64,000 nt of DNA, taken from contig CAWDYC010000004.1 in NCBI GenBank assembly GCA_963806535.1, positions 448,001 to 512,000 of the forward strand, written 5' to 3'. The translations under genes were made by a program, and so were the position numbers. Shown here in pieces: positions 7,395 through 39,241 of this stretch. The first letter of the stretch is position 1, and each line of letters opens with the position of its first letter. Origin of the DNA: Candidatus Bathyarchaeota archaeon (lineage in GTDB: Archaea; Thermoproteota; Bathyarchaeia; Bathyarchaeales; Bathycorpusculaceae). Below the pieces are notes generated by a model. The model was given only the letters and a program-made list of their open reading frames with translations. It was not told the DNA's origin and made no database searches.

Positions 7395-8837
7395 TTAAAG
7401 TTTGTTTACTGAACTTGTTTTTTGTTTCTTGAAGAAAACCAACAACCCAGCAACCACAACCGCTGTAACTACTGAAACAGCGGCAACAGTTACAATCGGA
7501 AAAAACTCTGACTTGGCTATGATAAAATGGATTGTTTCTGAGGCGCCCATGTTTCCATAAGTGTCATTCGCATAAACTGTGATACTGTGAGACCCGCTTG
7601 GAAGCCCAGTCAAAAATGTGTTGCCAGTTAAGGTCACGTTTTGTTGCCCATCCAGACTATAACCAGTCCAGTTAACAGCTTTGTCAGCAATGAAAAACAG
7701 CTGCACACTAGAATTATCATATGTTTGGTTTGCAGGCGATTGAATTGATATTATTGGCGGAGTATGTTCTAGAACATATGAAGGATCAGGAGTGCCATAT
7801 CCAATAGGGAAATATTGATCATTTCTTGCGCTTGGATAATATGTATCAAAAAAGCGTTGAGGATCTATTCCTCCACCGATAGCGTAGAAAGTGTCGTTGA
7901 CAACAGCCACGCCATAGCCAGCTCGATTTGAAAGCTGGGTAGTAGCAGCATACGTCCAACTGTCATTTGCTGGATTATAAACGCCAGTTTGGTTTTCACT
8001 AAATACATAGATTCGTCTTGGTGTGGAAATACCTGTTGTGGCGTCTCCTGACACTTCAAAAGTTGCATAACCTTGAAGACCCGTGGCATGATAAGGTATG
8101 GTTGAATTAAGAATACTCCATGAATCTTTCAGGGGATCGTAAACTTGGTTCAGTAGGCTCAAGCCTTCGACGTAAATTTTGCCATCAAGCACTGCCGTGA
8201 CAAGGGTATCATAGTTTTTATTTACAGAAGGTGCCTTGCTTTTTGTTACCCATGAATCATTTGCTGGGTTGTATGCATATGTTTCGCCAGAATGACTGAT
8301 TACATAGATTAATCCATTAACAACGCTTGCTTTAATGGGCCACTCTTTCGAAGGCAGAGATGCTTTAGTTTGCCATGTGTTATTTGCAGTGTTGTAAACT
8401 TCATTAATAACACTGACCACTTGAGTATTGAGTCCATAAAATGGTACGCTTGTAAGTCCTCCTATGCAGTAAATTTTGCTTTGATAAACTGCTACTGCAA
8501 AACTCTCTCTTGCCGTTGACATCGGAGCTTTGTAAATCCAACTGTCTGTAATAGGGTTGTATTCTTCGTTGGTATTTACTGTTCCACCATTAAGACCCGC
8601 GTAAAAACCTTGATCTTGATTATACAAGCCAAAAACGTCGTCTCCTCCAATTGCGTAAATCTCACCATTTACTGCAACAACCCCAAGATTGGCTCTTGCA
8701 GTATTCATTGAGGCTTTGGAAACCCATGTGTTCTCAACAGATACAATTGATGAAGCTCCAGAAACAGGCTTATCCGCAATTACCAAAGATGAAGTCAGGC
8801 ATACGAGAATAAGCATTACGGCTAATCCTTTACCCAT
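7395..8837 (-). CDS. Kelch-repeat surface protein with C-terminal Ig-like stalk and membrane anchor
   Basis: Signal peptide, Kelch GG/W repeats (IYAIGG, IYCIGG, FYAIGG), GYSLDGQ..HSITVYAND module, FFP-TM-KKQK. Confidence 0.85.
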   Translation of the reverse strand: MGKGLAVMLILVCLTSSLVIADKPVSGASSIVSVENTWVSKASMNTARANLGVVAVNGEIYAIGGDDVFGLYNQDQGFYAGLNGGTVNTNEEYNPITDSWIYKAPMSTARESFAVAVYQSKIYCIGGLTSVPFYGLNTQVVSVINEVYNTANNTWQTKASLPSKEWPIKASVVNGLIYVISHSGETYAYNPANDSWVTKSKAPSVNKNYDTLVTAVLDGKIYVEGLSLLNQVYDPLKDSWSILNSTIPYHATGLQGYATFEVSGDATTGISTPRRIYVFSENQTGVYNPANDSWTYAATTQLSNRAGYGVAVVNDTFYAIGGGIDPQRFFDTYYPSARNDQYFPIGYGTPDPSYVLEHTPPIISIQSPANQTYDNSSVQLFFIADKAVNWTGYSLDGQQNVTLTGNTFLTGLPSGSHSITVYANDTYGNMGASETIHFIIAKSEFFPIVTVAAVSVVTAVVVAGLLVFFKKQKTSSVNKL

Positions 8838-8863
8838 TTCTAATCAAGTTCTATTTTGGATTC

Positions 8864-8933
8864 GTTTGGCATAAAAGGGTTCTTGTCAAGGTTTCTGGAC
8901 TAAGCAGTGATTTTTTAGTCAAGGTTTGTTGAC
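8864..8933 (-). repeat. Promoter cassette copy A (two 16-bp palindromic boxes + BRE/TATA)
   Basis: Reverse complement matches 38198-38267 at 69/70 nt; boxes at 8885-8900 and 8918-8933. Confidence 0.9.
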
Positions 8934-9170
8934 TTAATGGAGCTTTTTTTGAGTACCACAATTTTACTCAAGTTTGCGACGTTTTGTTTTTCTTGTGTTT
9001 GTCGTTTTATGTGTTTACCCGATTTCGATACTACATTAAACTGTATTCTATAGTATACCTTCCTTATCCATTACCAACATGATATGTATCCTAAACCGAG
9101 TAAACACCAATTGCCTTTTTCTAGAAAATCAATATCCATCTTAGCTTTTCTCCAACATACCGTAAGGTCG

Positions 9171-9207
9171 TTGGTTGGTTGGATTAAAATTTAATCCCAC
9201 CAATCAA
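9171..9207. other. Near-perfect 18-bp-arm inverted repeat
   Basis: TTGGTTGGTTGGATTAAA-A-TTTAATCCCACCAATCAA, 16/18 complementary. Confidence 0.6.
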
Positions 9208-9463
9208 AACAAATCAATGAAAGTGAGTAAGTCTTAAATTTGAATAGCTGAGAATTGAAGGGTTGATGGACTTTTATGTGTAAAAATACAGGCACGGAGA
9301 TTGTAAAACAAAATGGGAAGTAACTCAAAGAGAAATATGGTGCCGAAGTCTATCGTTTTCGGAATAATATCGAGGTTTCACAGGCGCTTAGCGAGTATTA
9401 GTGACTTAGAAACAAAAACATAAAATCGTCAATGTCTATAGTGTAAGGATGTTGTGAGAAAAC

Positions 9464-9691
9464 ATGAAACTCCATTGTGTGAAATGTGGTCGTTTGCTTC
9501 CAAAAGATGAGGGCGCAAAATCTTTGCTACCGTTTGAAGTTTACCGCTGTCAGAATTGCGGGGATGGTTTGCTTTTTAATGTGGCTACAAAAGAAGCTTA
9601 TTTGATTCCTAAAAATCTGGGACTGTTTGAGATGACGCTTGAAAAAGTTAAAGAAGCAATCAACCAAATTCCTTATGATGAAGATTACTAA
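9464..9691 (+). CDS. Small zinc-ribbon protein
   Basis: CVKCG...CQNCG. Confidence 0.65.
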   Translation: MKLHCVKCGRLLPKDEGAKSLLPFEVYRCQNCGDGLLFNVATKEAYLIPKNLGLFEMTLEKVKEAINQIPYDEDY

Positions 9692-9767
9692 CTTATATTG
9701 CAAAGTAGAAACGGGTAAGTATCAGCTCAGAGAGTATTTGGTGGGGGAAGTTTTATTTCTCGAAGTT

Positions 9768-9889
9768 ATGAGCGGGATGAAGATTGGTTAATAACGTGTC
9801 CTGAATGTCATGGTCAAGGTACAATAGGTACAGGGGACAATAGAGTGCGATGTTCAAAATGCGGTGGCTCTGGAAGAATAAAACGATAA
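9768..9889 (+). CDS. About 40-aa DnaJ-type zinc-finger microprotein (needs one extra G in the GGG run after ATG AGC)
   Basis: Manual translation ..DEDWLITCPECHGQGTIGTGDNRVRCSKCGGSGRIKR*. Confidence 0.6.
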
Positions 9890-10080
9890 TACGTTTAAAC
9901 AACTGAAGACACCCACACAGATGTTCTAACTAACTATTTCTTCTTCTTTCAAAACTTACTTTAATTCTCTCTTTATCACACTATCGCCACGTATATCGCC
10001 CAAAAAAGTACAATTGCAATTCAAAACCTTTAAAGAAATAGCTATTGTTGAAACCGTATTCTTTGCTGTTTTTTCTTCGC

Positions 10081-10341
10081 TTATGGATAATGTGGAAGCT
10101 CGGTTTTTAAGGCGTCCCTTTTGAATAAAAATAGCAGCAGGAAAATTACCGCACACGCTATAGCGATTGATACAAATATGGTTCCATAAGTTATTTCAGC
10201 GCTTGTTGTTGCACCAAAATGAATAACTGCATTGTTGATTACGGTTCCGTTTGTTCCAAGCCAAATACCTATCACTCCTGGAATCATAAGGATCACCGCC
10301 GTTATTATCAGAAGAATACCTAATGGACCACCTCTGGACAT
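10081..10341 (-). CDS. Small two-TM membrane protein
   Basis: 86 aa, two hydrophobic helices; AAAACTTAAAT TATA-like motif upstream. Confidence 0.6.
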   Translation of the reverse strand: MSRGGPLGILLIITAVILMIPGVIGIWLGTNGTVINNAVIHFGATTSAEITYGTIFVSIAIACAVIFLLLFLFKRDALKTELPHYP

Positions 10342-10476
10342 AATTCAACTTTAGGTTGCTTTCCAGATTTAAGTTTTAAGCAAAAAAGCAAAGGCAAAAC
10401 AAACTCTTAAATCTGTAAAGCTTAGAAACAATTTAATAATGGAAGTCTCTGAGAACTCTCCACCCGGGTTGATAAC

Positions 10477-11223
10477 ATGGTAATGTACACGATTACGAAG
10501 AAAATAGAATCTGCCCTCGGGATTCATGACTTAGACGAACATTATATAATCGATGGTTTTGAAAACTCTCCAGTAGTCGTAGATTTAGGTGCTGGAAAGG
10601 GTGAATTCCCTGAGAGGATATTAGAAAAATATCCTTCTTCGAGAATTATTTTAGTTGAGCCCGATCCTGCTCTGATTCGTGAACTCACGAAGAAATTTGA
10701 AAAGCAAGAAAATGTGGAAATACTTGAGGGAGCCGCCGTAGGAAATGAAGAAAATAATTATCGCAAGTTTTATTTGAACAAAAATTATGGGACGAACTCA
10801 TTACACAAATCATTGTTTCCAGAAAAAGATATTCAAAGCGAAATTTCAGTAAGGATGGTCACTTTGGAAGATATTTTTTCATTGTTCCACCTTGAAAAGA
10901 TTGATTTGTTAAAGATAGACATTGAAGGAGAGGAGTGGAACATTTTGGAAAATTTTTCGAAGCACGATTTTGAAAGAATACAGCAAATATCTGTAGAATT
11001 TCATGATTTTATGGACCCTTCATTGAGACAAAGAAGCGAAAGATGCATAAAATTACTGAAAGATCTTGGGTACAGCTTTATTCACAGGGGAATAAGATAC
11101 ATGCGTGGATCACCCTACTATAACTGCCTTTTTTATGACAGAAAAAGATTGAACTCAAAAGCGATCGTTAAGTGGTTAAGCGTACCAACACAGGTATTCA
11201 TAAGCTTACAGAAACCTTACTGA
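10477..11223 (+). CDS. FkbM-family methyltransferase
   Basis: VVDLGAGKG, LVEP, IDLLKIDIEGEE, QISVEFH. Confidence 0.85.
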   Translation: MVMYTITKKIESALGIHDLDEHYIIDGFENSPVVVDLGAGKGEFPERILEKYPSSRIILVEPDPALIRELTKKFEKQENVEILEGAAVGNEENNYRKFYLNKNYGTNSLHKSLFPEKDIQSEISVRMVTLEDIFSLFHLEKIDLLKIDIEGEEWNILENFSKHDFERIQQISVEFHDFMDPSLRQRSERCIKLLKDLGYSFIHRGIRYMRGSPYYNCLFYDRKRLNSKAIVKWLSVPTQVFISLQKPY

Positions 11224-11382
11224 GATACTGGATTTGTAAGGAGGTTTCGATGACTCCACTAAGAATTACTCTGGAAATCAATTCAAAATATGAAATATCC
11301 TAAAAAATGATTTTATCTCGCTTATCAATAGTTAGAACAGCTTATTGTTTTTTAAATAAAAAAAGGATGGTTTGGTTTTGGT

Positions 11383-11583
11383 TTATTCTTGGCCGTGGTG
11401 CATCATACCCATGCCCATTCCCATGCCTTTTCCTCTTGAAGCCATGCCTTCTCTCCAATTCTGAATAATTCCTGGTAATATTTGATTCATCATTTCCATG
11501 TCTGTTTTGATTAGGTCCATGGCTGCTTGGTTTATTTCAACTTCAAAAGTTAATTTTACTTTTCCGCTTTTTTCTGCTTCCAT
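11383..11583 (-). CDS. Small Met/His-rich protein
   Basis: 66 aa ending GMGMGMGMMHHGQE; strong GGAGGTG RBS; T-rich terminator-like tract downstream. Confidence 0.75.
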   Translation of the reverse strand: MEAEKSGKVKLTFEVEINQAAMDLIKTDMEMMNQILPGIIQNWREGMASRGKGMGMGMGMMHHGQE

Positions 11584-11702
11584 AAATTCACCTCCTAAAT
11601 TATGAGCTGTGATTAGTTTTAGCTACCTAGTTGGTTAATGAACTTGTTTTTTAAAGGTGCGTGACTGTGCCGAAGCAACAACAAAGGGTTTTATGGCAAC
11701 TA

Positions 11703-12531
11703 CTATGTGTTCCAATGATTGGCTAGTGCTGCTAATGCTTTTTCAAACAGGTAGTCTTCTGGCATGACATCAACTTTTACACCCATTTCTTTTAGGGCTT
11801 CAGCTGTTGTGGGACCAATAGCCACAGTCGTAACCTTCCCGTTTATTATGCTTCGAAGTTTATCCATCGGCGCCTTCTCGGTAAGCATTTGGAAAATGTT
11901 TTTTGCGCTCAAGCCGCTTCCAAAAACAATTGCATCGATTTTTCCCGAGGTTAAATCTTGAAAGAACCTGTCTTTCAATTCTGCATCAACTGGCAGTCCT
12001 GATTCGTAAACATAAATTTCCTCAACATCCGCACCCATTTCCTTGAGCTTATCACTCAAAATGGGCGTTGCATTGCTGGTACGCGGAATCCGAATTTTTT
12101 TGCCTGAAAGCTCTCTGTCTTTTAAGCACTCGATTAATCCTTCAGAACTGTATTTCGTTGGGACTAAACTTACCTTAACATGGTATTCTTCTTCCAACGC
12201 TTGAGCTGTCCGTGGACCAACAGCTATAACAAACGTTTTAGACAATCCTTTCTTGAGTGAAGCTGGTTTGTTTTAGGGTTTCAGCGGCGCCAAAAAGATG
12301 TTTGACGCCGTTGGTGCTCATCAAAATAACATAGTCAACTTGCTCTTTTTGCAGTTCTGTGATGAATTTTTTGATTGGCTCGAGATTGCTTAGTCCTTTG
12401 ATTTCGATGGCGGGAATGTAATATGGGATCCCGCCTTTTTCCTTGATAAGTTTGCCTGCTTCTTCTGCTTGACCGGCAGGACGCGTTATGGCGACTGTTT
12501 TGCCTTTTAGGCTAGGGGTTTTTTGAACCAT
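11703..12531 (-). CDS. hemD: Uroporphyrinogen-III synthase (frameshift near 12250)
   Basis: VAITRP, AVGPRTA, VYES, AIGPTTAEAL; split over two ORFs. Confidence 0.9.
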
Positions 12532-13262
12532 GCGAGTTTCCTGCCTAAATTTGCTACTTCACCGATAACGATGACCGCTGGCGGTTTGATTTGTTTTTCT
12601 TCTGCCATTTTAGCTATTGTGCCGATCTTGCCAATGATGGTTCTTTGCTGTTGCATTGTGCCCGATTCAATAATAGCTGCAGGCGTTTGGGGGCTTAATC
12701 CACCGTTTATCAGCTTTTCTGTTATGGCGTGAAGAGATTCTACACCCATCAAAATAACCATCGTGTCTACTGCATCGGCTATTTTTGCCCAGTTAATCGG
12801 TTTTTCTGCGTCGCCGGCTCTGTGCCCAGTTATGATAGCCACCGAAGCCGCATAATCCCTGTGAGTCAAAGGTATGCCAGCATACATTGGCGCTGCAACT
12901 GAGGAACTAATTCCGGGCACAACTTCAAACTCGATGCCTTTTTCTACCAGGGCTTCGGCTTCTTCGCCGCCTCTGCCGAAAACAAATGGGTCGCCGCCCT
13001 TAAGCCTAACCACATTGCCGCCTGTCTGGGCTTTCTCAATTATCAACTCAGTAATCTTGTCCTGTGGAACCTCATGTATGCCCGTTCGCTTCCCCACATA
13101 AATCTTCTCAGCTTTTTCTGGGACTAAGTCTATAATTGATTCACCGACTAATCTGTCGTAAATTACAATGTCCGCTTGTTTCAGCAGTTCGACCGCTCTT
13201 ACTGTGAGCAGTTTGGGGTCGCCGGGTCCAGCGCCTACCAGGTAGACTTTACCATGTGCCAT
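12507..13262 (-). CDS. cobA: Uroporphyrinogen-III C-methyltransferase
   Basis: VYLVGAGPGDPKLLT, RLKGGDPFVFGRGGEE, GIPLTHR. Confidence 0.95.
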   Translation of the reverse strand: MAHGKVYLVGAGPGDPKLLTVRAVELLKQADIVIYDRLVGESIIDLVPEKAEKIYVGKRTGIHEVPQDKITELIIEKAQTGGNVVRLKGGDPFVFGRGGEEAEALVEKGIEFEVVPGISSSVAAPMYAGIPLTHRDYAASVAIITGHRAGDAEKPINWAKIADAVDTMVILMGVESLHAITEKLINGGLSPQTPAAIIESGTMQQQRTIIGKIGTIAKMAEEKQIKPPAVIVIGEVANLGRKLAWFKKPLA

Positions 13263-14185
13263 ATTTTTGTCTCCATTCTTTTTCAAGGTCTTTGGCTCCA
13301 TGTTTGATGAGGTCTTGACCCACTATTTCGCCAAGTTTGTAAGCGTCGGCTAATGTTCCTTGGGCTGAAGCACTGATTTTTTTTCGTTCATTAAGTGAGA
13401 AAATGCATCCGAACAACGAGAGATTGTTGTCAACCACATGTCCGACGGCTCCAATTGGTACTCGGCAGCCGCCTTCCAATTCAAGCACCAAACTCCGTTC
13501 AGCGTTTATCTCAGCCCGAGTTGCGTTGTCTTCAACTGACCTCAAAAGCGAAATTACGTCTTTCGTTTCCTTCTTTGGCAACAATTGCTATAGCTCCCTG
13601 TCCCGCTGCTGAAGGAAACTCGTCGAGAGATAAGCGCTCAGTGATTTCTTTTTCTAAATTCATTCTCTCAAGCCCCGCTTCCGCGATGACGACTCCTGCA
13701 AACTCGCCTCTTCTAACTTTGTTCAATCGCGTGTCCACGTTGCCGCGGATAGGTTGAACGTCCAAGTCTGGGCGTATAAATTTGATTTCTGCCATTCTTC
13801 TGAGGCTGCCTGTACCAACAACTGAGCCTCCGGGTAAAGCGTTAAGGGTCACTTTGCTTTTTGAGATAAAAACGTCATGTTGCGAATCCCGTTTTGGAAT
13901 TGCAGCTAAAACCGTGCCACCTGTCTGTTCAACAATGGGCACATCTTTTAAACTGTGAACGGCAAAGTCGATTTCGCCATTAACGACTTGCTGATCAATT
14001 TCTTTTTCAAAAATGCCTTTGCAATCAATAGAAAACAGTGGTTTGCCATGTTCTTTGTCGCCTACGGTTTTGATGATGTTTAGTTTAAAATCAAGTTCGG
14101 GATGTGCCTGCTTGATTTGTTTGAGGACTCGGTTTGTTTGTGCAAGTGCGAGTACGCTTCCTCTGGTGCCAACGGCTAGTTTCAT
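13249..14185 (-). CDS. hemC: Porphobilinogen deaminase (frameshift near 13580)
   Basis: GTRGSVLALAQ, VHSLKD, GTGSLRR, RGNVDTR, LEGGCRVPIG. Confidence 0.95.
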
Positions 14186-16457: not shown

Positions 16458-16458
16458 T

Positions 16459-17114
16459 TTATTTTGTCTCCTTTTCTTTATGAGTTTCATGGCTAATTCT
16501 TGAGCCTCAAGAAGCTTTCCTTCTTTTAAAACTTGTTTAATGTTATCGTTATTAAGTATCTCGTTTAACATTTTGCTTCTAAGCTTTTGAGTCAGACAAT
16601 TTGTTCTTTGAGAATACTGCGTAAGTGGCTTTGTAACTCAATCTCAAGCAGATCTTCAGGCTGAATCAGCTTCTCAATTCTTTCTCTAAGCGCCTTAGCC
16701 ATGGCAGGGCTTTTTCCCGAAGTGGAAACCGCAATCTTGACATCGCCGATATGTGCAACTGCTGGCAAAATAAAATCGCTCAACGCAGGATTATCAACGG
16801 AGTAAACCATGCATCCAACAGACTTTAGCCGCTTTAACCAGTTCAAAGTTAAGTTTTGAATTATCTGTAACAGCCAAAAACATGTCAGGCTTAGGATTTA
16901 GACTTTCAACAAAAGCTTTGGCATCTTTAATTTCAGTTTTTACCAAAGCAACTTTTTTTTCTTCAGCCAACTTTTGGATGCCGCTTGAAAAATCTTTGCT
17001 TATAACCCAGATTTTTGCGCCAGAATCTACAAAGTTCAGGGTTTTTCGGTAGCCCTCAGAGCCTCCGCCAACTACAATTATTGTTTTTCCGTCGAGTTTA
17101 AGGTCAATTAGCAC
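16459..17114 (-). CDS. sirC: Precorrin-2 dehydrogenase (SirC/CysG N-terminal type), several frameshifts
   Basis: IVVGGG, VDNPALSDF, IAVSTSGKSPAMA; spread over three frames. Confidence 0.85.
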
Positions 17115-18676
17115 TTTTCTTGTTTGCCACCTTCAGAAGCGTTGAGCCTATAATTGGTGACTAAAGTTTTGAATTTTTCCATAAACGCCTCATAATCAAC
17201 TTTTGTTAGTTTTGGGGCGTCGGCAATTTTTGTTAATGCTTCGATGTTTAGGTATTGTTCTGCTACTTGGATGGCTTGGGCTCCGAATTCTTCGTATTTT
17301 ATTTCGATTTCAGGTATCATGCCTCTTCCTTCCACTTCCATTCGCGGCACAATGCCTAGCAATTCGACGCCTGCATTTTCAAAAGCACTTTTAATTGTTT
17401 GTTTGATTTCGTCACTAAGATAGCTTATGCGCGCTTTGTTTAGGATTACTCCTGTTGTGTTTACTCCAAGATTTCGAGCAGATTAACGTAGTTTAGAGTG
17501 TTCACGACTGCGCCCTCTACGCCTTCTTTGTCACAGCCAACAACAAGAACTGTTGATGCGCCAAGTGCTGCTGCAACTTCAGCCGTCGAAGTTGGCCGCA
17601 CAACTTTATCATTTAAAAGTCCAGTGAAAGCGCTCATCGCTCCTTCAACAAGAATAAAATCGTAGTTTTTGCTAGCTTCACTTATTGCTTCGGCAAGTGG
17701 TTTCCAGCCGCTTTCGCCAATTTTAATTGACGAGTAAGGTTTAATCGGCTCTTTAATGAGGTAAAGTGCTGGTACAGCGTCTCGTATGTCTCCGCCAACT
17801 TTTATGATTCCAACTTTGAAGCCTCTTTTCTTTAATGCTGCCAGCAATGCCTGCAACAAGAAAGGTTTTTCCTGAACCGCTTCCTGTCGCCGTGACCAAT
17901 AGTAGGCGTGGCGTTTTTTGTTTGGCGGTGCCTTGCTGTTGGATGTTGGTTGCGATTCCGATTTCGCATTTTATTCGCTTCAAAAGTTTGGCGTTTGCGC
18001 TTCGAATGTCTTCGAGCTCAATTGCATTTATGTTAAGTGATTTTGTGATGCTGTTGATTATGGTTGGGTTCTGGTCAAGCAGTCCGTGAACGAAAATTCC
18101 GACGACGTTGCCTTCTTTGTTGGCTACTCCTGAAACCAAATCTTGCGGGTCCTTATGGTAATTGACGCGTTGCACGTGTGAAACAAGAATTGTTTTTGCA
18201 TCTTTATGCAGCAGGATTTGGCCGTAGGTGTGGCAGTGGAATCCTGAAACTTCTTTGCCAACTTCTTGCGTGATGAAACTCTTGTCAGTTACAGTGGCCA
18301 TTACACGGTCAGTGCAGATTAAGGGCTTGAACTCTGCATCCAGCAAGCCTAAGCCTTCGCGGGTTATGGGCACTGTTGAGAGGCGTCCAACATCGGTTTC
18401 TTTTGCAAGAATTTGGAAACCTGAGCAGATTCCCAGCACAAATTTGCCGCTATCAGCCATTTTCAATATTTCATGACTTACTTTTTTGTTAACGCTTTGT
18501 GATTCAACTAGGCTTCCGCCTGGAATGATTATCATGTCTAAAACTTCAGATGCTGGCTTGCCATCTACAAGGGCATCGGAGCAAACTAGGTCGGTTGGGA
18601 GGTTTCCGAAGTCTTCAAAGCATGGAAGAGCGCCTGGAAGGTACACCAAACCTATTCTGTGATGTAATTCTGTCAC
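17108..18676 (-). CDS. Cobyrinate amidotransferase-like protein, N-terminal GATase + C-terminal CbiA-type ATPase (PRK06278-like); frameshifts near 17830 and 17470
   Basis: GALPCFEDFGNLPT, GICSGFQIL, GFHCH, ATGSGSGKT, LVEGAM, GVILNK. Confidence 0.8.
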
Positions 18677-18738
18677 AAATTTTGCCCTTCGCGTATTTAC
18701 GGTAAAACTTATATTTAAGACGGTCGGTTTATCCAACC

Positions 18739-20026
18739 ATGCATTCCTCGGCGAAGACAGACCATACTATCAATGTTAGGATAACGCATAAAACAGCTCA
18801 TGTGCCATTAATGGAGGCTGTAGCGTTTAAAGAAAAAGAAAAAGCTCTTGCCGAGATCTGTTCTCTTGAAAACGTTGAAGAATGCTTAATTCTTCAGACA
18901 TGCAACCGCATAGAAATCTTTGTTGTATCCGAAGAAGTCGCTAACACAATTAGTTTACTTAAGGATTATTTTTCTAAAAGAGCCAATGAGCATGCTGAGG
19001 AAGCATACAAAGCTATTGAAACTTCAGTAGATAATGATGCTTTTAATCACCTTTTAAGGGTAACTTCAGGTTTAGAATCCATGGTTATAGGCGAAGACCA
19101 AGTTCTAAATCAAGTCTGGGACGCTTATTTGCTGGCGGATAACGCTAAAACAATCGGTCCAATCCTAAAGCACCTGTTTAACCGTTCAATGACTGTTGGC
19201 AGACGTGTAAGAAACGAAACAGGCATCAACAAAGGCGCTGTTTCGGTGGGTTCAGCAGCCGTTGAATTAGCCGTTAAAGTTGCTGGGCAACTTGGAAGAT
19301 AAGAAAATTCTGGTTATGGGCGCTGGAGAAATAGGAACTCTCGTTGCCAAAGCCTTATCACACCGCTGCCTTAGCCCTATTTTTATTGCAAACAGAACTT
19401 ATGAGAGGGCAGTAAAGTTAGCTGAAGATCTGAAAGGAAAAGCGGTAAAGTTTAATCAGTTTGAAGAAGTCCTCGTTGACGCTGACGTGGTAATTTGCTC
19501 AACTGCAGCACCTCACTACTTGTTAACCAAAGAAATACTTTCAAGATTAATGACGCAGCGAACAAACAAAAATGACCTTGTAATCATTGACATTTCAAAC
19601 CCACGAAATGTCGAAAAGGCAGTTCAAGAAGTCAAAGCAACAAAACTCTACAACATCGACGATTTACAATTAATTGCCGACAAGAACAAACAACAACGCG
19701 AAAAAAGCATTGAAAAAGCAGTCAAAATCCTCGACGAAGAACTTGTTGTTCTCAATCAGGACATGAAAAGCCTCTCAGTTCGCCTAATCATTTCATCATT
19801 GCTTTCTCAGGCTGAGCAAGTTCGGCAAAAAGAACTTGCAACCGCTCTAAACATGATTGGCAATGTTGATGATAAAGAGCGGAAGATTCTTGAAGATTTA
19901 ACCTCTATTTTGCTGAAACAAACTTTTGTGCCGATTGTTGAAAACTTGCGTGTAGCCGCGAAAAACGGTGACCAACAAATAATTGATTTTGCAGCGAAGT
20001 TGTTTGAGAAAACGGGGAAAAATTAA
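18739..20026 (+). CDS. hemA: Glutamyl-tRNA reductase (frameshift near 19278)
   Basis: LQTCNRIE, SGLESMVIGEDQVLNQ, GAGEIG, ANRT, DISNPRNV. Confidence 0.95.
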
Positions 20027-20027
20027 C

Positions 20028-26875: not shown

Positions 26876-27254
26876 GAGAACAGCTTCTTTCATATTCCTG
26901 AAGTGTTCGTCACCAGTCAGGATTTTTGATTGCAGTTTCCTTAGCTGTAGCTAGTACATAAGCGTCGGCTAGACCAAAATCTTTCAAGATTTTTCGCATT
27001 TCAAAATGTATCCGTCCAGCCTCAAAAGAAAGTTCTTCGTCCGCATGGATTATTCTTGAATTGTTGGTTAAAACTTCATAGGCGACTTTCACATATTTGC
27101 CTTTGCGTGCAGCTTTGCTTACTACTTCAGCGATTGTCAAAGCACAGGTGAATATTTCTTCGTTTCTTTCAATGAAGTCGTTGACTTTTCTTCCGAGTTC
27201 TGTTCCATCTAAATATTCGATCCACGCATAAGAATCAATGACAAGCCTACTCAT
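26867..27254 (-). CDS. vapC: VapC/PIN toxin (frameshift near 26940)
   Basis: VIDSYAWIEY, AEV, GLADAYVLA, then ILTGDEHF in the shifted frame. Confidence 0.88.
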
Positions 27255-27581: not shown

Positions 27582-28001
27582 CTAAATAGGGTATTCTATT
27601 AACCCACGATATTTAGAATTTTCAAGTTTTTTAACTAGCTTAAAGTCAAGAGTTAGTAATCGCATATCCAACTTATCTGCAAGGGAAAGAAAAGCGGCAT
27701 CATAAACAGCGATGTTAAACTCCAAAGCTAAACTCAAAGCATCAAAAATAACTTCTCCAAAACTATGAACACCAAAAAGATTCATTATTCCTGTTGCTTG
27801 CGTGAAAATCTTTTCAGCCTCTTTTTTGGTTAATGTGTTTGGTGTCTTGCATTTGATGGCGTTGGCTACTTCATAGTAGCTAAACTCTAAAATGTGACAA
27901 TATTCATGTTCAGATATTCTTTTTAGAGCCCAATTGGAATTGTCTTCGGGCATTACTAAAGCAACGATGACGGATGAATCTACAACTACTTCAGTGGCCA
28001 T
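27582..28001 (-). CDS. vapC: VapC/PIN toxin
   Basis: VVVDSS, YEVANA, AVYDAAF, LLTLD; ATG at 28001. Confidence 0.88.
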   Translation of the reverse strand: MATEVVVDSSVIVALVMPEDNSNWALKRISEHEYCHILEFSYYEVANAIKCKTPNTLTKKEAEKIFTQATGIMNLFGVHSFGEVIFDALSLALEFNIAVYDAAFLSLADKLDMRLLTLDFKLVKKLENSKYRGLIEYPI

Positions 28002-28224
28002 AATCGCGGTCTTCCCGGATAATATCAGCTGAAGAAGGGGTGTTGCCACTCTTTTTGTAGAGTTCATTTCTAAAACGAGTAGCCTCTGCAAGGGCTTGCT
28101 TAAGTTTTTTCTTTTTTACCATTTGTTCAAGATAAACCCTGACGTCTTCTGCATATTCTGGATTAAGCCGTTGAAGCTCCTTTTTTAGCTCTTTTGGAAC
28201 TCGGATTGCTATTACATCACTCAT
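27991..28224 (-). CDS. VapB/RHH-type antitoxin
   Basis: MSDVIAIRVPKELK...IIREDRD; overlaps the vapC start. Confidence 0.85.
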   Translation of the reverse strand: MSDVIAIRVPKELKKELQRLNPEYAEDVRVYLEQMVKKKKLKQALAEATRFRNELYKKSGNTPSSADIIREDRDYGH

Positions 28225-28277: not shown

Positions 28278-28300
28278 TTTACATTTCTAAACCGTTCAAA

Positions 28301-29149: not shown

Positions 29150-29162
29150 TCTTTTTTCTCCA

Positions 29163-31089: not shown

Positions 31090-31144
31090 TTATTTCCCTC
31101 TGCCCGTTGGATAATTCATCCATCCATACTCTTATTAATCTATG

Positions 31145-31160
31145 TTTAACTAAAGTTAAA
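31145..31160. promoter_or_regulatory. Palindrome TTTAACT-AA-AGTTAAA between cbiM and the divergent regulator
   Basis: Perfect 7-2-7 inverted repeat. Confidence 0.5.
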
Positions 31161-31176
31161 GTCAGGTTGAATAACT

Positions 31177-32022
31177 TTGCCGAAGAAAACCACCCCCACT
31201 ATACTTTTGCGTGAAAAAGGCGAATTCACAAAGTTCCAAATCCTCCTCGAAATCATGCGAAACCAACCACACATAAAACAAAAAGACATCAGCGACAAAC
31301 TAGGCATAACAATCCAAGCGATATCAAAATATTTCAAAAAACTCACAAAAGAAGGTCTATTAGAAGCAGGTTCAGAACGTGCAGACTACCGCTTAACACC
31401 CAAAGCCGTCATTAAACTGCGTGAAGATATCCGCGGCCTTGAAAGTTACGTCAACGAAATAAAACATGATCTAAAAATTGAGCATGCGTGGCCAGCCATC
31501 GCAACTGAACCTGTTAGGGCAGGACAAGAAGTTGGCTTGATCATGAGAGAAGGCGTCATGTACACAACTGAATCCCATAATGCTTCTGCAGAAGCAAAAG
31601 GGATAGCGCTCTCTGACGCCGAAGCGGGTGAAGATTTAGGATTAAAAGAACTTCGTGGAAAAGTCAAAATGAAACAAGGAAAAATCCTAATCATAAAGCT
31701 ACCTAGCATCCGAAAAGGTGGCTCCAAAGCAGTAGACCTAACAAAACTCAAAGTATTTTATGACGAGTTTAACCCCGATCGGGTGGGTGTTATGGGTGCA
31801 GTTGGAAGAGCGGTCTTAAACAAGATGGGTCTTAAAGCGGATATTGAGTTTGGAATCAGCCGTTCAGCCGCCATCGCTGCTTCAAGAGGCTTAAACGTTT
31901 TCGTTCTTGTTGTCGGCCGGATGGTTAATCGGATGATTCAAGAAATTGACCAAATTAACATGAAAACAAGTGCGGAAATAATTTATGAAGTTAAGGACGC
32001 TCAGAAAACAAATATAATTTAA
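31177..32022 (+). CDS. Archaeal wHTH transcriptional regulator (COG1497-like)
   Basis: KFQILLEI..QKDISDKLGITIQAISKYFKKL; C-terminal AAIAASRGLNV. Confidence 0.8.
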   Translation: MPKKTTPTILLREKGEFTKFQILLEIMRNQPHIKQKDISDKLGITIQAISKYFKKLTKEGLLEAGSERADYRLTPKAVIKLREDIRGLESYVNEIKHDLKIEHAWPAIATEPVRAGQEVGLIMREGVMYTTESHNASAEAKGIALSDAEAGEDLGLKELRGKVKMKQGKILIIKLPSIRKGGSKAVDLTKLKVFYDEFNPDRVGVMGAVGRAVLNKMGLKADIEFGISRSAAIAASRGLNVFVLVVGRMVNRMIQEIDQINMKTSAEIIYEVKDAQKTNII

Positions 32023-32044
32023 CAAAGAAAAGAAAGGAAAGAAT

Positions 32045-32800
32045 TTATTTTTTGTTTTTTCTTACGATTGCGAATGTTCCAAATGCTACAGAAACTAGTA
32101 TTGCGGCTACTATGACGATGCTTACAGTTGAGTATTCTGGAATTGTGGGTACTGTAATGGTGCTGCTTGTTGGAACGAAGAATGCCTGAACGGCAGTTAC
32201 CCCAGTCATGTTTAGTGATAGCGTACTGGTGGTGTAGGTGTTGCCTCCGTCGGCTGTGGCAGTTACCCAGCATAAGAATTTGAAGTCGCTGCTTGGATTT
32301 GCTTGGAAGTCAGAAACTGTGCCGATTGTGTAATTGTTATAGGTTGTTGGAGCCGTTATCGATCCGGTTGGAGAAGTTGTTCCGCCTGCCGATCCGAACA
32401 TGCTGACGCTAGTTGCTCCTGTTGTTGTTGCGGTTGCTGTGTTGTTTGTGCTTGAGGTGAAAATTGCTTGAATAGCGCATGTGCCTGAGGTAATGTTGAG
32501 TGCTATAGGGTTATCAGTTGTGGTATTGGCGCCTGATGCAGTGACGGTTTCCCAAGCTATGAACGTAAAGCCTGTGCCGGCAACTGCGTTGAAGTTTACA
32601 GTTGTGCCGACATTGTAACTTTGGGTTGTTCCGCCATTTACAGTTGTGCTGTCTGCTGTGATGGTTCCTCCATCGGAGCTGTAGACGAACACAGATCCCT
32701 GTGTTTGGGCGTTGACGCCTGCACCTAAAGTAGCTATTAGAAGTGCCGATGCCAGCAAAATTAAAGCTGAGATTTTAATTTTCTTATTTGTGTTACTCAT
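32045..32800 (-). CDS. Thr-rich surface protein with two InlB B-repeat-like domains and PEF-CTERM-like signal
   Basis: Signal peptide, GGT..F.A...F.F..W repeats, TIPEYS-TM-RKNKK. Confidence 0.75.
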   Translation of the reverse strand: MSNTNKKIKISALILLASALLIATLGAGVNAQTQGSVFVYSSDGGTITADSTTVNGGTTQSYNVGTTVNFNAVAGTGFTFIAWETVTASGANTTTDNPIALNITSGTCAIQAIFTSSTNNTATATTTGATSVSMFGSAGGTTSPTGSITAPTTYNNYTIGTVSDFQANPSSDFKFLCWVTATADGGNTYTTSTLSLNMTGVTAVQAFFVPTSSTITVPTIPEYSTVSIVIVAAILVSVAFGTFAIVRKNKK

Positions 32801-32993
32801 TAAATCACCGATTCGTTAGCCCTTGCTTGCTAAGGATCGAGATATAAACTTTTGCCAGAATCCCAAAATAGAAAAATTTGTGAAAATCAAAATAACTGGT
32901 CAGCTGCTTTAAAAGTCTGATATTTTATAGCAAAATGTAAAAGTTTCAATTATTAACAAGAAATGTTTGAGAAACCAAGTTCTTGCGATTACC

Positions 32994-35081: not shown

Positions 35082-36283
35082 TTTGCCAGCTCCTCAATAG
35101 CTTGCTTTATTTTTTCATCTTGTTTTCGCGTTAATGGCTCAATTAAGCTGAATGCTGATTGGGCAATTTTTTCGGCTTCTTCTCGGCTGTATCGCTCCAA
35201 AAAGATTTGTAGAAAATACTCAAATGCTTTGGTTTTCAAATCCTTAAATTCGCTTTCAAAAATTGAACGAACTATTTCATCTGAAACAGCACTCTCTTTA
35301 AGCAACACGATTGGGTGAACAAGCAAAGCCTTCTCGCCAGCACTTCGAATTTTAGCAATATCAATTTCTCCTCGACTGGCTTCAGCAGGTAGTGTACCCT
35401 TTAAAATAGGTATTATTACTGCGCCTTCAGAATCGTTATCTTTTACCATTTGAGCTGCTGACTCAGTAATTTTTGCAGATGAAATGCATGGGAAATCTTG
35501 TTCTACAACTACGAATCTTCGTGCTGAAGTTAATTCTACAGTCTGAGGATTTACTTCGCCTTTCTCGTTTACCTTGACATACAAAAAGCCTTTTTGGTTC
35601 TTTGCTTCCCTGTAATCGGCTGTTTCAGTGCAGCCGCTATAAGCCAAAGTCCCTGTTTTGAATTTGCACAAGAACCTTTCATGAACGTGGCCAGCAGCGT
35701 AATAGTTAAAGCCGTCTGGCAACTGCTCAGGTAAAAGTTCAGTTTCAATATAGGGTGGCGTAACGTTTGGCAAATCTAAAGCACCATGAAAAACAAAAAT
35801 ATTGCAAACTTTATTTTGCGGTGCTGGAGGTTTTTCCGCCATGAACCTCGGCAGTGCCTCCTGAGTCCTGTGTTTATTATGGTAGTTTGGTATGCCATAA
35901 ACGTAGCAGCTGTCGGGTTTATTCCAGCACGCGCCATCGTGTCTGGGTAGATGATGAATTAATCCAGCACTATCAAGCGGATAAAGGATCGTTCCAGTTA
36001 TCGTGTTTGGGGCAGAATCGTGTGAGCCATCAACCGTTAAAACTGGGATACCTGCGTCTTTAAGCCGTTTGAAACTCCAAATAGCATTTTCTAGAGTTAC
36101 GTTTGAGGGTCTTGGCTGATGGAAAAGGTCGCCCGCAATAATCATAAAGTCCGGCTTTAACTCAATTGTTTTATCAACAAGCTCTTTGAATGCATCATCA
36201 AAGTCTTGCCTTCTAGCTTCTAGTCCATACTGCGAATAGCCTAAATGCAAATCGGCGGCATGGACAAAGCTAAACGGCTTCAA
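35078..36283 (-). CDS. mre11: Mre11 nuclease
   Basis: HAADLHLG, AGDLFH, GSHD, YAAGHVH, YSG; TTG start at 36283. Confidence 0.93.
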   Translation of the reverse strand: MKPFSFVHAADLHLGYSQYGLEARRQDFDDAFKELVDKTIELKPDFMIIAGDLFHQPRPSNVTLENAIWSFKRLKDAGIPVLTVDGSHDSAPNTITGTILYPLDSAGLIHHLPRHDGACWNKPDSCYVYGIPNYHNKHRTQEALPRFMAEKPPAPQNKVCNIFVFHGALDLPNVTPPYIETELLPEQLPDGFNYYAAGHVHERFLCKFKTGTLAYSGCTETADYREAKNQKGFLYVKVNEKGEVNPQTVELTSARRFVVVEQDFPCISSAKITESAAQMVKDNDSEGAVIIPILKGTLPAEASRGEIDIAKIRSAGEKALLVHPIVLLKESAVSDEIVRSIFESEFKDLKTKAFEYFLQIFLERYSREEAEKIAQSAFSLIEPLTRKQDEKIKQAIEELAK

Positions 36284-36644
36284 GCGGTTGACTCCCTTTT
36301 TTTCCACTTATGCTTCAGATTAGCGGTTTGAGTATTTTAAGAGTTCTTGTACTTTTCAAAAACAAGCTCTGAATAAAAGAGTGCAAAGGATCTAACTACT
36401 AGCCCGTCTGGTGCCTTACCGCTCTGACGTCATTAACCCATTCTTTAGGTTTAATCTCCATCAATTCCCCAAGTTCTTTTGCTATTTGCTATGCTCTGGC
36501 TCTTTTTGCAGTAATATCTTTCATTTTTACTGTCACTTGTTAATTGCATTATATTATAGGTTATTTAAGACAATTTGGCAATCTTTAGGGGAAAAATATA
36601 AAGCATCATTCATACGTTACCTTTGAAAAGGCGCTTAAAGTTAG

Positions 36645-37487
36645 ATGAAATGCCAGGTTTGCAGTCAGGAAAGTCTTCTTCCATTCCGTTGTCCATTTTG
36701 TGGTGGTCAATTCTGCAGTGTACACCGTTTGCCTGAGAACCATGCATGCCCAAATATTGTTTCTGCTCGTGCACAAAGACAAGAACAAGTTATGACTCCT
36801 CAATCATACAACTCTTATCAATATACCTATAATTTGGGTCAACCCAAACGCGAGAGACATATTTACTTTAGCCAAAAAGAAGTCAAACACATATCGGTTG
36901 CAGCAGCGCTGGTAATCGGCATCGGTTTCTCCATAGGATTATATGGAAACTATCTCGGAGGTTTCCTCCTCAAAGGTTCTTATTATCAATGGACATTGAC
37001 GGTGATGTCTATTTTTGCAGTCATAATGACAGCATCTTTTTTGGCACATGAAATTGGTCACAAAATTATGGGGCAAAAAAACGGTCTATGGGCAGAATTC
37101 CGTCTAACCACCTGGGGCTCAGTTTTGACTTTGGTTAGCGTTTTTTTGCCTTTTAAAATGATTTCGCCAGGTGCAATGATGCTTGCAGGTCAACCAAACG
37201 GCGATGAGCTAGTCAAAATTTCCATTGCGGGTCCAGCCATCAATCTTATCTTTTCTACAACAATTCTTGGAGTTGCCCTTGCTCTACCAACAAGCCTGTT
37301 TGTCAGCATGCTATTCTTCGCAGCTTACATCAACGCATTCATGGCAGTGTTTAACCTCATTCCATTCGGGATCTTAGACGGATACAAAATTTTTAGCTTC
37401 AACAAGAAACTTTGGGCTATGGCTTTTGTTCCCAGCGCTCTTCTTGCTTTATTTACTTACTTGCTTACTTTTACAACCTTCCTTTGA
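36645..37487 (+). CDS. AN1 zinc finger + site-2 (M50) intramembrane protease
   Basis: CQVC..CPFCGGQFCSVHRLPENHAC; HEIGH; AGP; NLIPFGILDG. Confidence 0.88.
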   Translation: MKCQVCSQESLLPFRCPFCGGQFCSVHRLPENHACPNIVSARAQRQEQVMTPQSYNSYQYTYNLGQPKRERHIYFSQKEVKHISVAAALVIGIGFSIGLYGNYLGGFLLKGSYYQWTLTVMSIFAVIMTASFLAHEIGHKIMGQKNGLWAEFRLTTWGSVLTLVSVFLPFKMISPGAMMLAGQPNGDELVKISIAGPAINLIFSTTILGVALALPTSLFVSMLFFAAYINAFMAVFNLIPFGILDGYKIFSFNKKLWAMAFVPSALLALFTYLLTFTTFL

Positions 37488-37657
37488 AAATCTCAGATTT
37501 CGGGAACAAATTTTTGTATTTGTTTTGACAATTAATTGTCTGGAAAATTGAGAAAAGGTGCATATTTAATGTTAACTGGCTTCGCGAATAAATGAAAACA
37601 ATTATTTAGACTTGGATCTTAAATAATGTCAAAAAAGAAAAATCTAAAAACTTGGTT

Positions 37658-37966
37658 TTAGATGAGTTCAATTGTTACGTGGACTTCTTCTGGTACACGG
37701 ATGCGCATGATTCGTCTCATAACTCGTTCTTCCGAGTCAATGTCAATTAAACGTTTGTGAATGCGCATTTCCCACCTGTCCCATGTAGCTGTTCCTTCAC
37801 CTGACGGCGCTTTAAGAACTGGAACCCGCAGCCGTTTTGTCGGTAGTGGTACTGGACCGTTGATTTTGACACCTGTTTTTTGAGCGATGCTTCTAAGTTC
37901 TCCGCAAACCTCTTCTAATTTCGCGTAATCTGTGCTTGTGAGGCGTATTCTTGCTTTTCTTACCAT
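37658..37966 (-). CDS. rpsJ: 30S ribosomal protein S10
   Basis: [30 protein letters not shown]. Confidence 0.97.
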
Positions 37967-38197
37967 GTTAGTCTATCAATCCATTATTTTTCTATCTAAT
38001 ATATGTTGGTGAGACACCTTAGAGACTTCAGGGGCACATAAAAACCTTACGACTCACAGAACAGAGCTTAATGCGTAAAATTCAAACTGCTAAATCAAGA
38101 ACCATAGTATATTTAACTATCAAAGCATTTCCTGCTCACTTACCTACCCACTCCTTCTCAGTCCGTATTTGGCAAAATGAAAGCAACATTGTTTTTG

Positions 38198-38267
38198 GTC
38201 AAGAAACCTTGACTAAAAAATCACTGCTTAGTCCAGAAACCTTGACAAGAACCCTTTTATGCCAAAC
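38198..38267 (+). repeat. Promoter cassette copy B (two 16-bp palindromic boxes + BRE/TATA)
   Basis: GTCAAGAAACCTTGAC 38198-38213, GTCCAGAAACCTTGAC 38231-38246, CTTTTAT 38254-38260; 69/70 identical to the reverse complement of 8864-8933. Confidence 0.9.
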
Positions 38268-38293
38268 AAATTTCAAAGTAGAACTTGATAAAA

Positions 38294-39241
38294 ATGGGTA
38301 AGAAAGCAACAGCAGTAACGCTCATGATGACGCTCTTATTCTCAGCTTTAGCTGGAACATTGATTACAAACAGTGTTTCTGCACAAATGGGTCCAATTAT
38401 GAATAGCGGTCCAAGATTTGACCCTCTTCTAGTCAAGGTGACTTCTCCTATCGAAAATCAAGTCTACAACAATTCAGCTATTATTCAGCTAAACATTACA
38501 ATAACCAAACCGGAAGTATGGTTTACTTATGGCGGTGAGGGGATTTCATTTTTTGATTGTCAAGGTCAGGTAAATTATATCAAATATAGCATTGATGGAA
38601 AACCAAATGAAACAATTTCTGCAAATGATAAATACACTGGTTTGTCTCGGAACTCAATTCCGCATACCTTAAACTGCATATTAACTTTGCAAGGGCTTTC
38701 TCAAGGATTGCACACAATTTCCGTTACCGCGGAAGGCATATACAATTATTGGATTATTAGCTACAGCGGTACCTACACCAACAATTCTGTTGCGGGTAAT
38801 TCAAACCTGATAGATTTTTACATTAATAATTATATTCGTCCAGAAATCTCGAACCTATCATTGAGTAACGGAAAATATAATGTTTCAAATGTTCCATTAA
38901 ACTTTACAGTGAACGAGCCAACCTCATGGATAGGCTACAGTTTAGACGGAAAATTAAACATCACTACTGCTGGAAACACAACCTTAACAGCATTAACTAA
39001 TGGTGTACATAACCTGACAATCTATGTTAATGATACGTTGGGAAACACAGGCATTTCAGAAACCGTTAGCTTCAGCGTAGCCAAGCTACAGCTTTTCCCA
39101 ATTATGACTTTTGTCGTTGCCTTAGTGATAGTGGTCGTTGCGATGGCCGCTGGTTTGCTAATTTACTTCAGAAAGGGCAGACAAGTAAAATCAGGGGTCT
39201 CATTAAATCTTGAAAAAATCTTTAAGCAAAGAAGGATATGA
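38294..39241 (+). CDS. Surface protein with Ig-like domains and C-terminal anchor
   Basis: Signal peptide, YSIDG and GYSLDGK..HNLTIYVND modules, LFP-TM-RKGR. Confidence 0.75.
   Translation: MGKKATAVTLMMTLLFSALAGTLITNSVSAQMGPIMNSGPRFDPLLVKVTSPIENQVYNNSAIIQLNITITKPEVWFTYGGEGISFFDCQGQVNYIKYSIDGKPNETISANDKYTGLSRNSIPHTLNCILTLQGLSQGLHTISVTAEGIYNYWIISYSGTYTNNSVAGNSNLIDFYINNYIRPEISNLSLSNGKYNVSNVPLNFTVNEPTSWIGYSLDGKLNITTAGNTTLTALTNGVHNLTIYVNDTLGNTGISETVSFSVAKLQLFPIMTFVVALVIVVVAMAAGLLIYFRKGRQVKSGVSLNLEKIFKQRRI

Follow-up and report, generated by a model that had tools for sequence, protein, structure and literature searches.

A candidate class-wide promoter module with paired palindromic boxes in front of cell-surface protein genes of Bathyarchaeia

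Results

Two inverted copies of a promoter-like module precede two surface-protein genes

The DNA analysed here, called the window throughout, is a stretch of 64,000 nt from Candidatus Bathyarchaeota archaeon (assembly GCA_963806535.1, contig CAWDYC010000004.1, positions 448,001 to 512,000), and it contains two genes for predicted surface proteins, A and B, each preceded by a near-identical stretch of promoter-like DNA that we refer to as copy A and copy B of a module. Gene A (7395..8837, minus strand) encodes a protein of 480 aa with an MGK start, a signal peptide, a Kelch propeller, an immunoglobulin (Ig)-like stalk and a C-terminal transmembrane (TM) anchor, and gene B (38294..39241, plus strand) a protein of 315 aa with an MGK start, a signal peptide, two Ig-like domains of the stalk type and a TM anchor. 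Pfam scans, which covered 74 of the 110 window open reading frames (ORFs) of at least 80 aa, the rest being mostly overlapping shadow frames, detected Kelch domains in the product of gene A and only a weak Big_13 Ig match in that of gene B. The C-terminal 121 residues of the two proteins, consisting of an Ig-like domain and the TM anchor, are 45% identical (E 7e-27); outside this region and the MGK start the two genes share nothing. In a codon-level comparison the shared domain was 47% identical in protein and 39% identical at third codon positions, the latter being near saturation. Gene B is followed by a gene on the same strand (39246..42071) for a PQQ-like beta-propeller protein of 941 aa with a signal peptide, a Pro/Thr-rich linker and a TM anchor. 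Since the gap between them is only 4 nt, these two genes probably form an operon that is transcribed from the copy B promoter.

A sequence-only reading of the window had reported a 69/70 match between the two regions, two 16-bp palindromic boxes in each with a period of 33 bp, a gene-proximal box abutting a BRE/TATA-like element (BRE, B recognition element), unrelated flanks and unrelated head domains of proteins that have an Ig-like stalk and anchor in common, and a corrinoid cluster between the copies. Alignments, pattern matching with a shuffle control and Pfam scans confirmed these descriptions. When each copy is read towards its gene, 8933->8864 (minus) and 38198->38267 (plus) are identical at exactly 69 of 70 positions, the sole mismatch being the sixth base, C versus G. 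In a repeat search of the window the match extended to inverted arms of 74 nt, 8860-8933 and 38198-38271, which are identical at 72/74 positions (97% complementary) and lie 29,264 nt apart. They form the longest and best inverted pair of the window, the other five pairs being 31–42 nt long with 71–88% complementarity. A looser match detected with blastn (129 columns at 87.6%, 8933..8809 versus 38198..38325) crosses the common TAGAACTTGAT and ATGGGTAA and reaches the first codons of genes A and B. At its 5' side the similarity has a sharp edge, which is exactly the first base of the distal box, and no alignment was obtained between the upstream flanks of the two copies.

The order of elements is the same in both copies. 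In copy A, on the minus strand, the distal box GTCAACAAACCTTGAC (8918..8933) is a 6-4-6 palindrome with 5/6 arm pairs, which scored 29.8 bits with the position weight matrix (PWM) described below. It is followed by a spacer of 17 nt, TAAAAAATCACTGCTTA (8901..8917), the gene-proximal box GTCCAGAAACCTTGAC (8885..8900; 33.7 bits), a purine-rich, BRE-like AAGAACC that starts directly after the box (8878-8884) and a TATA-like CTTTTAT (8871-8877). In copy B, on the plus strand, the distal box GTCAAGAAACCTTGAC (38198..38213) is a perfect 6-4-6 palindrome and scored 35.4 bits; the same spacer (38214..38230) and the same proximal box (38231..38246), recognised by its sequence, the pattern match and the PWM, are followed by BRE-like AAGAACC and TATA-like CTTTTAT (38247..38260). 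The BRE and TATA functions are presumptive in both copies. The presumed start-site regions and short 5' leaders come next, at 8838..8870 in copy A, where the leader carries TAGAACTTGAT and identity to the other copy drops, and at 38261..38293 in copy B, and the ATG is located 47 nt after the proximal box in both. The distal boxes read GTCAAC or GTCAAG, then AAAC, then CTTGAC, and the TAA and TTA ends of the spacer prolong the palindromes. The box starts are 33 nt apart in copy A and copy B alike.

The degenerate box pattern GTCMASAAACCTTGAC has four exact matches in the window, 8885-8900 and 8918-8933 on the minus strand and 38198-38213 and 38231-38246 on the plus strand. When up to three mismatches were allowed, 10 matches were found, compared with 1.86 ± 1.24 in shuffled sequences, and none of 100 shuffles reached 10. 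A PWM built from the 36 boxes of other genomes gave high scores only to the four known boxes of the window; the next best sites scored 11.4 and 10.2 bits, and the maximum in shuffles was 14.3 bits. The same scan detected no weaker module before the NosD-like gene 42226-44643 or elsewhere in the window. Two box-like sites with three mismatches each, GTCAAGAGACTTTTAC and GTAAACAAACTTTAAC, lie 24 nt apart on the minus strand (7367-7409), at the 3' end of gene A and adjoining the convergent DUF7347 gene 6828-7310. They are probably due to chance, since the PWM score of 10.2 bits falls inside the shuffle range. A scan for sigma-70 promoters and terminators around copy A, which is irrelevant for an archaeon, gave promoter-like sites below the shuffle mean.

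The module recurs with fixed geometry in other Bathyarchaeia genomes

The pattern CCTTGAC-N15-19-GTCNNNAAACCTTGAC was scanned over the contigs of 185,579 species genomes. All but three bases of the proximal box are fixed in this pattern, as against no more than the final seven of the distal box, and both boxes of a pair are forced into the same orientation. The scan yielded 18 loci (L001 to L018) in 16 genomes, all of them metagenome-assembled genomes (MAGs) titled Bathyarchaeia or Bathyarchaeota or, for two MFD MAGs belonging to the same series, uncultured archaeon; none of the loci belongs to the window's own genome. By our own arithmetic about 5 matches would be expected by chance (596 Gb, both strands, five gap lengths, equal base frequencies), and such matches would be expected anywhere among the 185,579 species, whereas those observed were restricted to Bathyarchaeia. 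The part of the distal box left free by the pattern reads GTC-N-A-N-AAAC in 18/18 loci, a T stands two positions before GTC in 36/36 boxes, and TAA or AAA follows most boxes. L008 and L013 keep their boxes despite a neighbouring ABC ATPase that is only 75% identical and flanks that are unalignable. The occurrence of 18 loci in 16 other genomes, with the free positions kept, indicates that the box is a conserved element of the class and not a private repeat. The motif is maintained before related genes while the flanks diverge, as is characteristic of a lineage-wide regulon motif.

Together with the two window copies the scan loci make up 20 modules, each of which was oriented to the gene that it faces. 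Directly adjoining the proximal box, 20/20 modules have A(A/G)(A/G)AA, and TTT(T)W comes 8–9 nt after the box, the consensus at the core promoter being GTCaAGAAACCTTGAC-AAAAAcc-CtTTTaac. The box consensus is GTCAAG-AAAC-CTTGAC, often extended to TTA...TAA. The centre-to-centre distance of the two boxes, approximately three helical turns, is 32 nt in one module, 33 nt in nine (both window copies among them), 34 nt in seven and 35 nt in three. Two loci, L003 (2067-2082) and L010 (917-932), contain a third box centred 43 nt, or about four turns, after the second, and there the BRE/TATA-like element comes after the third box. None of the 20 modules has a box that reaches into the TATA-like element or the expected start site.

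Four of the 18 loci (L005, L006, L007 and L014) have the module reversed and facing a divergent gene, so that the central four bases read GTTT; such reversed use is as expected of a symmetric dimer that reads the arms. At L006 (460-509) an A-run and a TTTT element are present on both flanks and genes with hydrophobic N-termini on both sides, and this module may drive divergent transcription. In nine of the 18 callable cases the start codon is located 41–58 nt after the box. Of the remaining nine, three have the hairpin leader described below, in two the distance was taken from box two of a triplet, and four have an uncertain start (L001, L002, L015 and L018).

Genes faced by the module mostly encode proteins with a hydrophobic N-terminus

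The best 15-residue hydropathy window within the first 70 residues, with a threshold of 2.0, served to detect hydrophobic N-terminal signals or anchors. These were present in 16 of the 18 callable ORFs faced by a module, window genes included, compared with 12 of 57 window ORFs. Fisher's exact test gave p 4.7e-6 for a count of 16/20, in which the two modules without a callable ORF were treated as failures. The sequence-only reading had suggested that the two copies could serve a surface-protein repertoire; more than two copies do exist across the class, and the listing of the genes downstream of them revealed the enrichment in surface or secreted proteins that such a repertoire would have. The two ORFs that failed the hydropathy test, those of L015 and L018, have an RR-containing N-terminus, which could be a Tat-type signal.

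NosD/Beta_helix domains were detected by Pfam in 8/18 faced genes (L002, L005, L006, L007, L010, L012, L014 and L008, where the match falls in the second of two ORFs that overlap). The protein faced by L016 is Ig-like and 44% identical to the product of gene B over 167 residues, L015 (BNR_4 and DUF7253) and L018 (DUF7253 only) face related proteins, and L001 faces a 4Fe-4S membrane protein. The proteins faced by L003, L009 and L017 had no Pfam family match. In L004 the faced ORF is short and open, at the end of a contig, and L011 and L013 are the modules without a callable ORF.

The Ig-like stalk with TM anchor (7395-7750 in gene A, 38819-39241 in gene B) is a widespread C-terminal module. A search with this domain found 279 proteins at E <= 0.001 among 565 candidates; the heads carried by these stalk-anchor proteins include Kelch, NosD/beta-helix, repeated Big_13, cohesin, dockerin and CARDB, and among the matches one bears the name Kariarchaeaceae and two that of Bathyarchaeota.

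The layout of the boxes suggests an operator for an activator

In our view the data show a conserved cis-regulatory module fused to a core promoter. The explanation that we favour, and regard as probable, is that it is a class-wide promoter module of Bathyarchaeia whose box pair would be the operator of a dimeric activator of a surface regulon, the extra identity of the window pair being the result of recent copying or conversion. A regulon is the general explanation because the module is class-wide; copying accounts only for the extra identity of the window pair. A dimeric DNA-binding regulator would sit cooperatively on the boxes, on one face of the helix. From the box that adjoins the BRE it would help to recruit transcription factor B (TFB) and TATA-binding protein (TBP) and so activate the cell-surface regulon, of which the two window copies would be two members. 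Between these two anciently diverged paralogues the spacer, the BRE/TATA and 9 nt beyond, approximately 74 nt, would have been homogenised.

According to the parts of the source available (PMC5512572), activators in archaea as a rule occupy sites upstream of the BRE and act by recruiting TBP or TFB. Ptr2, EarA, the ara-box factor and TFB-RF1 are given as examples, and a weak, A-rich BRE is said to accompany the need for an activator. The sequence-only reading had compared the box directly upstream of the BRE with such activator sites, and the comparison holds for the layout of 20/20 modules: a box, then the A-run, then TTTWA 8–9 nt on, which is the layout of an upstream activating array with BRE and TATA assigned from sequence.

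A wider form of this proposal is possible but distinctly more tentative. A single class-wide dimeric activator could be a cell-surface master switch for secreted and anchored proteins of the NosD-like, Kelch, Ig, BNR and PQQ types; their promoters might be kept alike by short-tract conversion seeded at the boxes, their heads recruited by promoter exchange, and a hairpin RNA fronted in five species.

Several observations weigh against an activator of a surface regulon. No regulator gene recurs beside the modules within the 4-kb loci, where one NrpR-like and one weak ribbon-helix-helix match were found. Winged helix-turn-helix genes of the window were not tied to the boxes either; these are 6828-7310 (DUF7347), 31177-32022 (MarR-like with DUF7839), 47669-48205 (Lrp/AsnC) and 56578-57006 (ArsR/MarR-like). 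The centre spacing of the boxes spans 4 bp (32–35), which is loose for strict helical phasing, and the common orientation of the two boxes of a pair was imposed by the scan pattern and is not itself a finding. The hydropathy test is a crude stand-in for a signal-peptide predictor. The stalk-anchor domain of A and B was matched in only 2/18 faced proteins, those of L010 and L016, when all locus ORFs were searched with phmmer, so the regulon is not defined by this domain. Five window ORFs with hydrophobic N-termini have no box in the PWM scan (3495-3911, 4180-5289, 32045-32800, 42226-44643 and 58264-59169), which means that the module is confined to part of the secretome; one of the five, 42226-44643, lies right after the gene B operon and encodes an 805-aa NosD/beta-helix protein with a C-terminal zinc ribbon. 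With regard to the conversion, the spacer part TAAAAAA..TC..TTA recurs in L012, L015, L017 and L018, as does AGAAC-N-CTTTTA, and for this reason some of the identity of the window pair may be due to selection, with fewer neutral positions than a simple count suggests. Finally, the box leaves no gap to the BRE and could equally well hinder TFB, which would allow for a repressor or a dual regulator.

In that case the same operators would be bound by a repressor or dual regulator that blocks TFB or holds a closed complex, and the genes would be turned on by release. We regard this as rather unlikely, even if it is the most serious of the competing explanations. With zero gap between box and BRE-like run in 20/20 modules a steric clash with TFB is conceivable, and the A-run and TTTWA could suffice by themselves as a core promoter. 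As described in the accessible parts of PMC5512572, repressor sites coincide with the promoter or the start site, and a repressor bound in the promoter region can hinder TFB/TBP. The boxes of the 20 modules, however, never occupy these usual repressor positions at the TATA-like element or start site, and the multiple sites directly upstream of the BRE that the same parts of that source describe are those of the activators Ptr2, EarA, the ara-box factor and TFB-RF1.

The identity of the window pair points to recent copying of the promoter

The spacers of the window pair have an identity of 1.00, compared with 0.59 and 0.47 for the other same-genome pairs (L001/L012 and L002/L014); the median of all 190 pairs is 0.59, which gapped alignment inflates. 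Only L015/L018, which are orthologous loci of two related MAGs, equal the identity of 1.00; conservation of the spacer does not exceed that of the flanks in two of the three orthologous pairs (L008/L009 and L004/L013). The other modules differ freely from one another in the central part of the spacer and in the bases that come after the TATA-like element. The divergence of the promoters thus contrasts with that of the coding sequences: identity at 72/74 positions with a sharp 5' edge is combined with saturated third codon positions in the shared domain, and the spacers of the other two same-genome pairs are at baseline, which argues for recent copying or gene conversion of the promoter alone. 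The same 17-nt spacer had already been taken as a sign of recent copying by the sequence-only reading, and the spacer values and the 39% identity of third codon positions lend support to this view. The event that we infer would be a recent copying, or a short-tract gene conversion, from one promoter to another at a stage when both had the boxes.

It is unlikely, in our judgement, that no recent copying took place, that is, that A and B are old paralogues from the duplication of a longer locus whose 74 nt were held by purifying selection. A common ancestor gene is plausible given the MGK start and the C-terminal stalk-anchor common to both, the boxes, the A-run and TTTWA are under selection class-wide, and the spacer part that recurs in four loci speaks for the same explanation. 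Selection of this kind would nevertheless have to act on the central spacer and post-TATA bases, which vary elsewhere, and the two other same-genome pairs are at the baseline; nor does it fit a knife-sharp 5' edge of a promoter match in genes whose third codon positions are near saturation. The spacer comparison hence disfavours pure selection without copying.

The sequence-only reading had also raised the possibilities of a portable expression cassette and of a flip of the corrinoid cluster by recombination between the inverted copies, and on both points it goes too far. Recent copying fits the data, while the idea of a cassette mainly of its own genome does not: the module is class-wide and was found in 16 other genomes with the same box-to-TATA geometry but other spacers. 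In its stronger form, with a mobile or recombinogenic cassette that hops as a promoter before new genes or with inverted sites that flip the 29-kb segment, this explanation is improbable. Near-identical promoter DNA before different genes has been described under the name 'putative mobile promoters' (PMC3575422, available in part), and the window pair has such features, 72/74 identity with unrelated flanks and unrelated N-terminal domains; but the C-terminal domains are 45% identical and the search for copies covered only 64 kb, in which no further copies were found. The copies are inverted, so homologous exchange between them would invert the interior, and arms of 74 nt with 97% complementarity are the flanking inverted repeats expected of an invertible segment. 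Against mobility or inversion, no transposase, integrase, invertase or recombinase family was detected by Pfam among the 74 of 110 ORFs scanned, the interior carries housekeeping genes, and 74 bases are a short substrate for homologous recombination. The spacers in the 16 other genomes are species-specific, as for vertically inherited regulatory DNA. No step in GC skew was observed at 8.9 or 38.2 kb, where the skew, weak throughout the window, is uninformative.

That the boxes are not transcription sites at all but origin recognition boxes (ORBs), transposon ends or chance palindromes has practically nothing in its favour beyond the inverted arrangement of the two copies and a loose resemblance of the variant GTCCAGAAAC to archaeal mini-ORB sequences. 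The distance to a TATA-like element is constant in all 20 modules, each of which is directed at the start of a gene, a relation that contradicts origin boxes and transposon ends. Archaeal origin boxes are inverted around an AT-rich unwinding element beside orc1/cdc6, but the 74 of 110 ORFs scanned included neither an Orc1/Cdc6 nor a transposase family, and the shuffle control excludes chance palindromes.

A hairpin element follows the module in five species

In five Bathyarchaeia species the module is followed by a conserved element of approximately 76 nt (L004:195-300, L008:1880-1985, L009:1880-1985, L011:1880-1985 and L013:1880-1985, all on the minus strand). It lies approximately 38 nt beyond the proximal box, close to where transcription would be expected to start. 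It consists of a hairpin with a perfect 14-bp stem, GGTTAAGCATGAAC...GTTCATGCTTAACC, and a loop containing the nearly invariant TTAACTGCCATGCCGCTGTT(T/C)CTCCT, and CCTCC and a T-run come next. Since the stem is invariant in 5/5 sequences it provides no covariation evidence; one inner pair is compensatory. A gene for a secreted protein comes after the hairpin in L004, L008 and L009, and none does in L011 and L013. The window lacks the element, and Rfam yielded nothing for it even at E <= 1; it may represent a small RNA or a structured leader. Rfam gave 0 matches for the window and for the 18 loci; neither the cassette nor the hairpin element is a known RNA.

Other genes of the window

The stretch of approximately 1.1 kb upstream of copy A (8934-10080) contains no ORF of at least 80 aa and no RNA family or tRNA matches, and a tRNA scan of the whole window found 0 genes. 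The only plausible small gene there is 9464-9691 on the plus strand, which encodes 75 aa with two CxxC pairs. Between the two copies the Pfam scan identified genes of haem and corrinoid biosynthesis, CbiMQO, two PIN-domain genes, Rad50/Mre11-like genes and ribosomal protein S10. The PIN-domain proteins (26910-27254 and 27582-28091) are encoded between the cbi cluster and the CbiMQO cobalt transporter and are likely remnants of toxin-antitoxin systems.

Outside the segment, 1625-2329 encodes a protein of 234 aa with a TIR effector domain of the CAP12/Pycsar type (E 3e-19) and may be a defence gene; no family was found for the neighbouring ORFs 151-927 and 2531-3142.

Many housekeeping genes are broken into two or three overlapping or adjacent ORFs, with Pfam matches that continue from piece to piece. 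These are the genes for HemD, HemC, sirohaem synthase, a CobB/CobQ-like amidotransferase, glutamyl-tRNA reductase, geranylgeranyl reductase, a class II aminoacyl-tRNA synthetase and phosphoenolpyruvate carboxykinase, the last in three pieces, and the split genes lie at 11703-12531, 13249-14185, 16592-17114, 17461-18736, 18739-20026, 45736-47257, 48333-49300 and 49477-51404. Either the assembly is rich in frameshift errors or the genome has many pseudogenes.

Discussion

Bathyarchaeia are among the most abundant archaea of sediments and soils and are almost entirely uncultured, and to our knowledge no regulator of this class has been characterised. We found no published description of this motif or of any promoter motif or gene regulation in Bathyarchaeia in a search outside which most subscription journals lay. 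Literature on the 10-mer AAACCTTGAC contained nothing that looked related to archaeal regulation among the matches listed, and the literature on archaeal transcription factors contained no GTCAAG/CTTGAC motif, judging by titles and abstracts. The regulon motif is new, and it is of an already known type in an uncultured class. Strongly conserved, readily recognised and attached to the core promoter, it offers a handle for listing the cell-surface regulon in any Bathyarchaeia MAG, the 74-mer may be used as bait for the regulator, and the module as a strong or regulated promoter for future genetics in the lineage. The window pair itself is a clean example of promoter-only homogenisation between old paralogues, if the conversion proposed here took place.

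Among characterised systems, and as far as the available parts of the sources describe them, the module is most readily compared with the sites of Ptr2 (rb2 of Methanocaldococcus jannaschii), EarA (fla), the Sulfolobus ara-box and TFB-RF1 (pf1089), which are likewise short sites directly upstream of BRE/TATA, with an A-rich, presumably weak BRE and a proposed recruitment of TFB/TBP. EarA also controls a cell-surface structure. Unlike the 6-bp sites of EarA, however, the Bathyarchaeia box is a 16-bp GTCAAG-AAAC-CTTGAC palindrome. In contrast to the known activator sites, its offset to the BRE is rigidly zero, it is used in either orientation, and its targets are many secreted or anchored proteins and not one operon.

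A second likeness is to the TGM motif of TrmBL1 in Thermococcales, the position of which relative to BRE/TATA reportedly decides between activation and repression. TGM, too, is a palindromic motif in many promoters of one lineage that is recognisable by comparative genomics, but its sequence differs and its targets belong to sugar metabolism, whereas those in Bathyarchaeia are surface proteins (PMC4706686, in its available parts). The Bathyarchaeia motif also differs from TGM, as described there, in occurring in phased pairs or triplets and in being found only upstream of the core promoter.

The window pair finally resembles the putative mobile promoters of Nijveen, Matus-Garcia and van Passel (PMC3575422) in that similar promoter DNA is located before different genes of one genome. 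As far as the accessible sections of that work go, the window pair differs from these promoters in having no mobile element and in preceding genes that are distant paralogues at their 3' ends, and a comparison of species gives the module the character of conserved regulatory DNA whose spacers diverge. Gene conversion between two promoters of one regulon would explain the window pair at least as well as mobility does.

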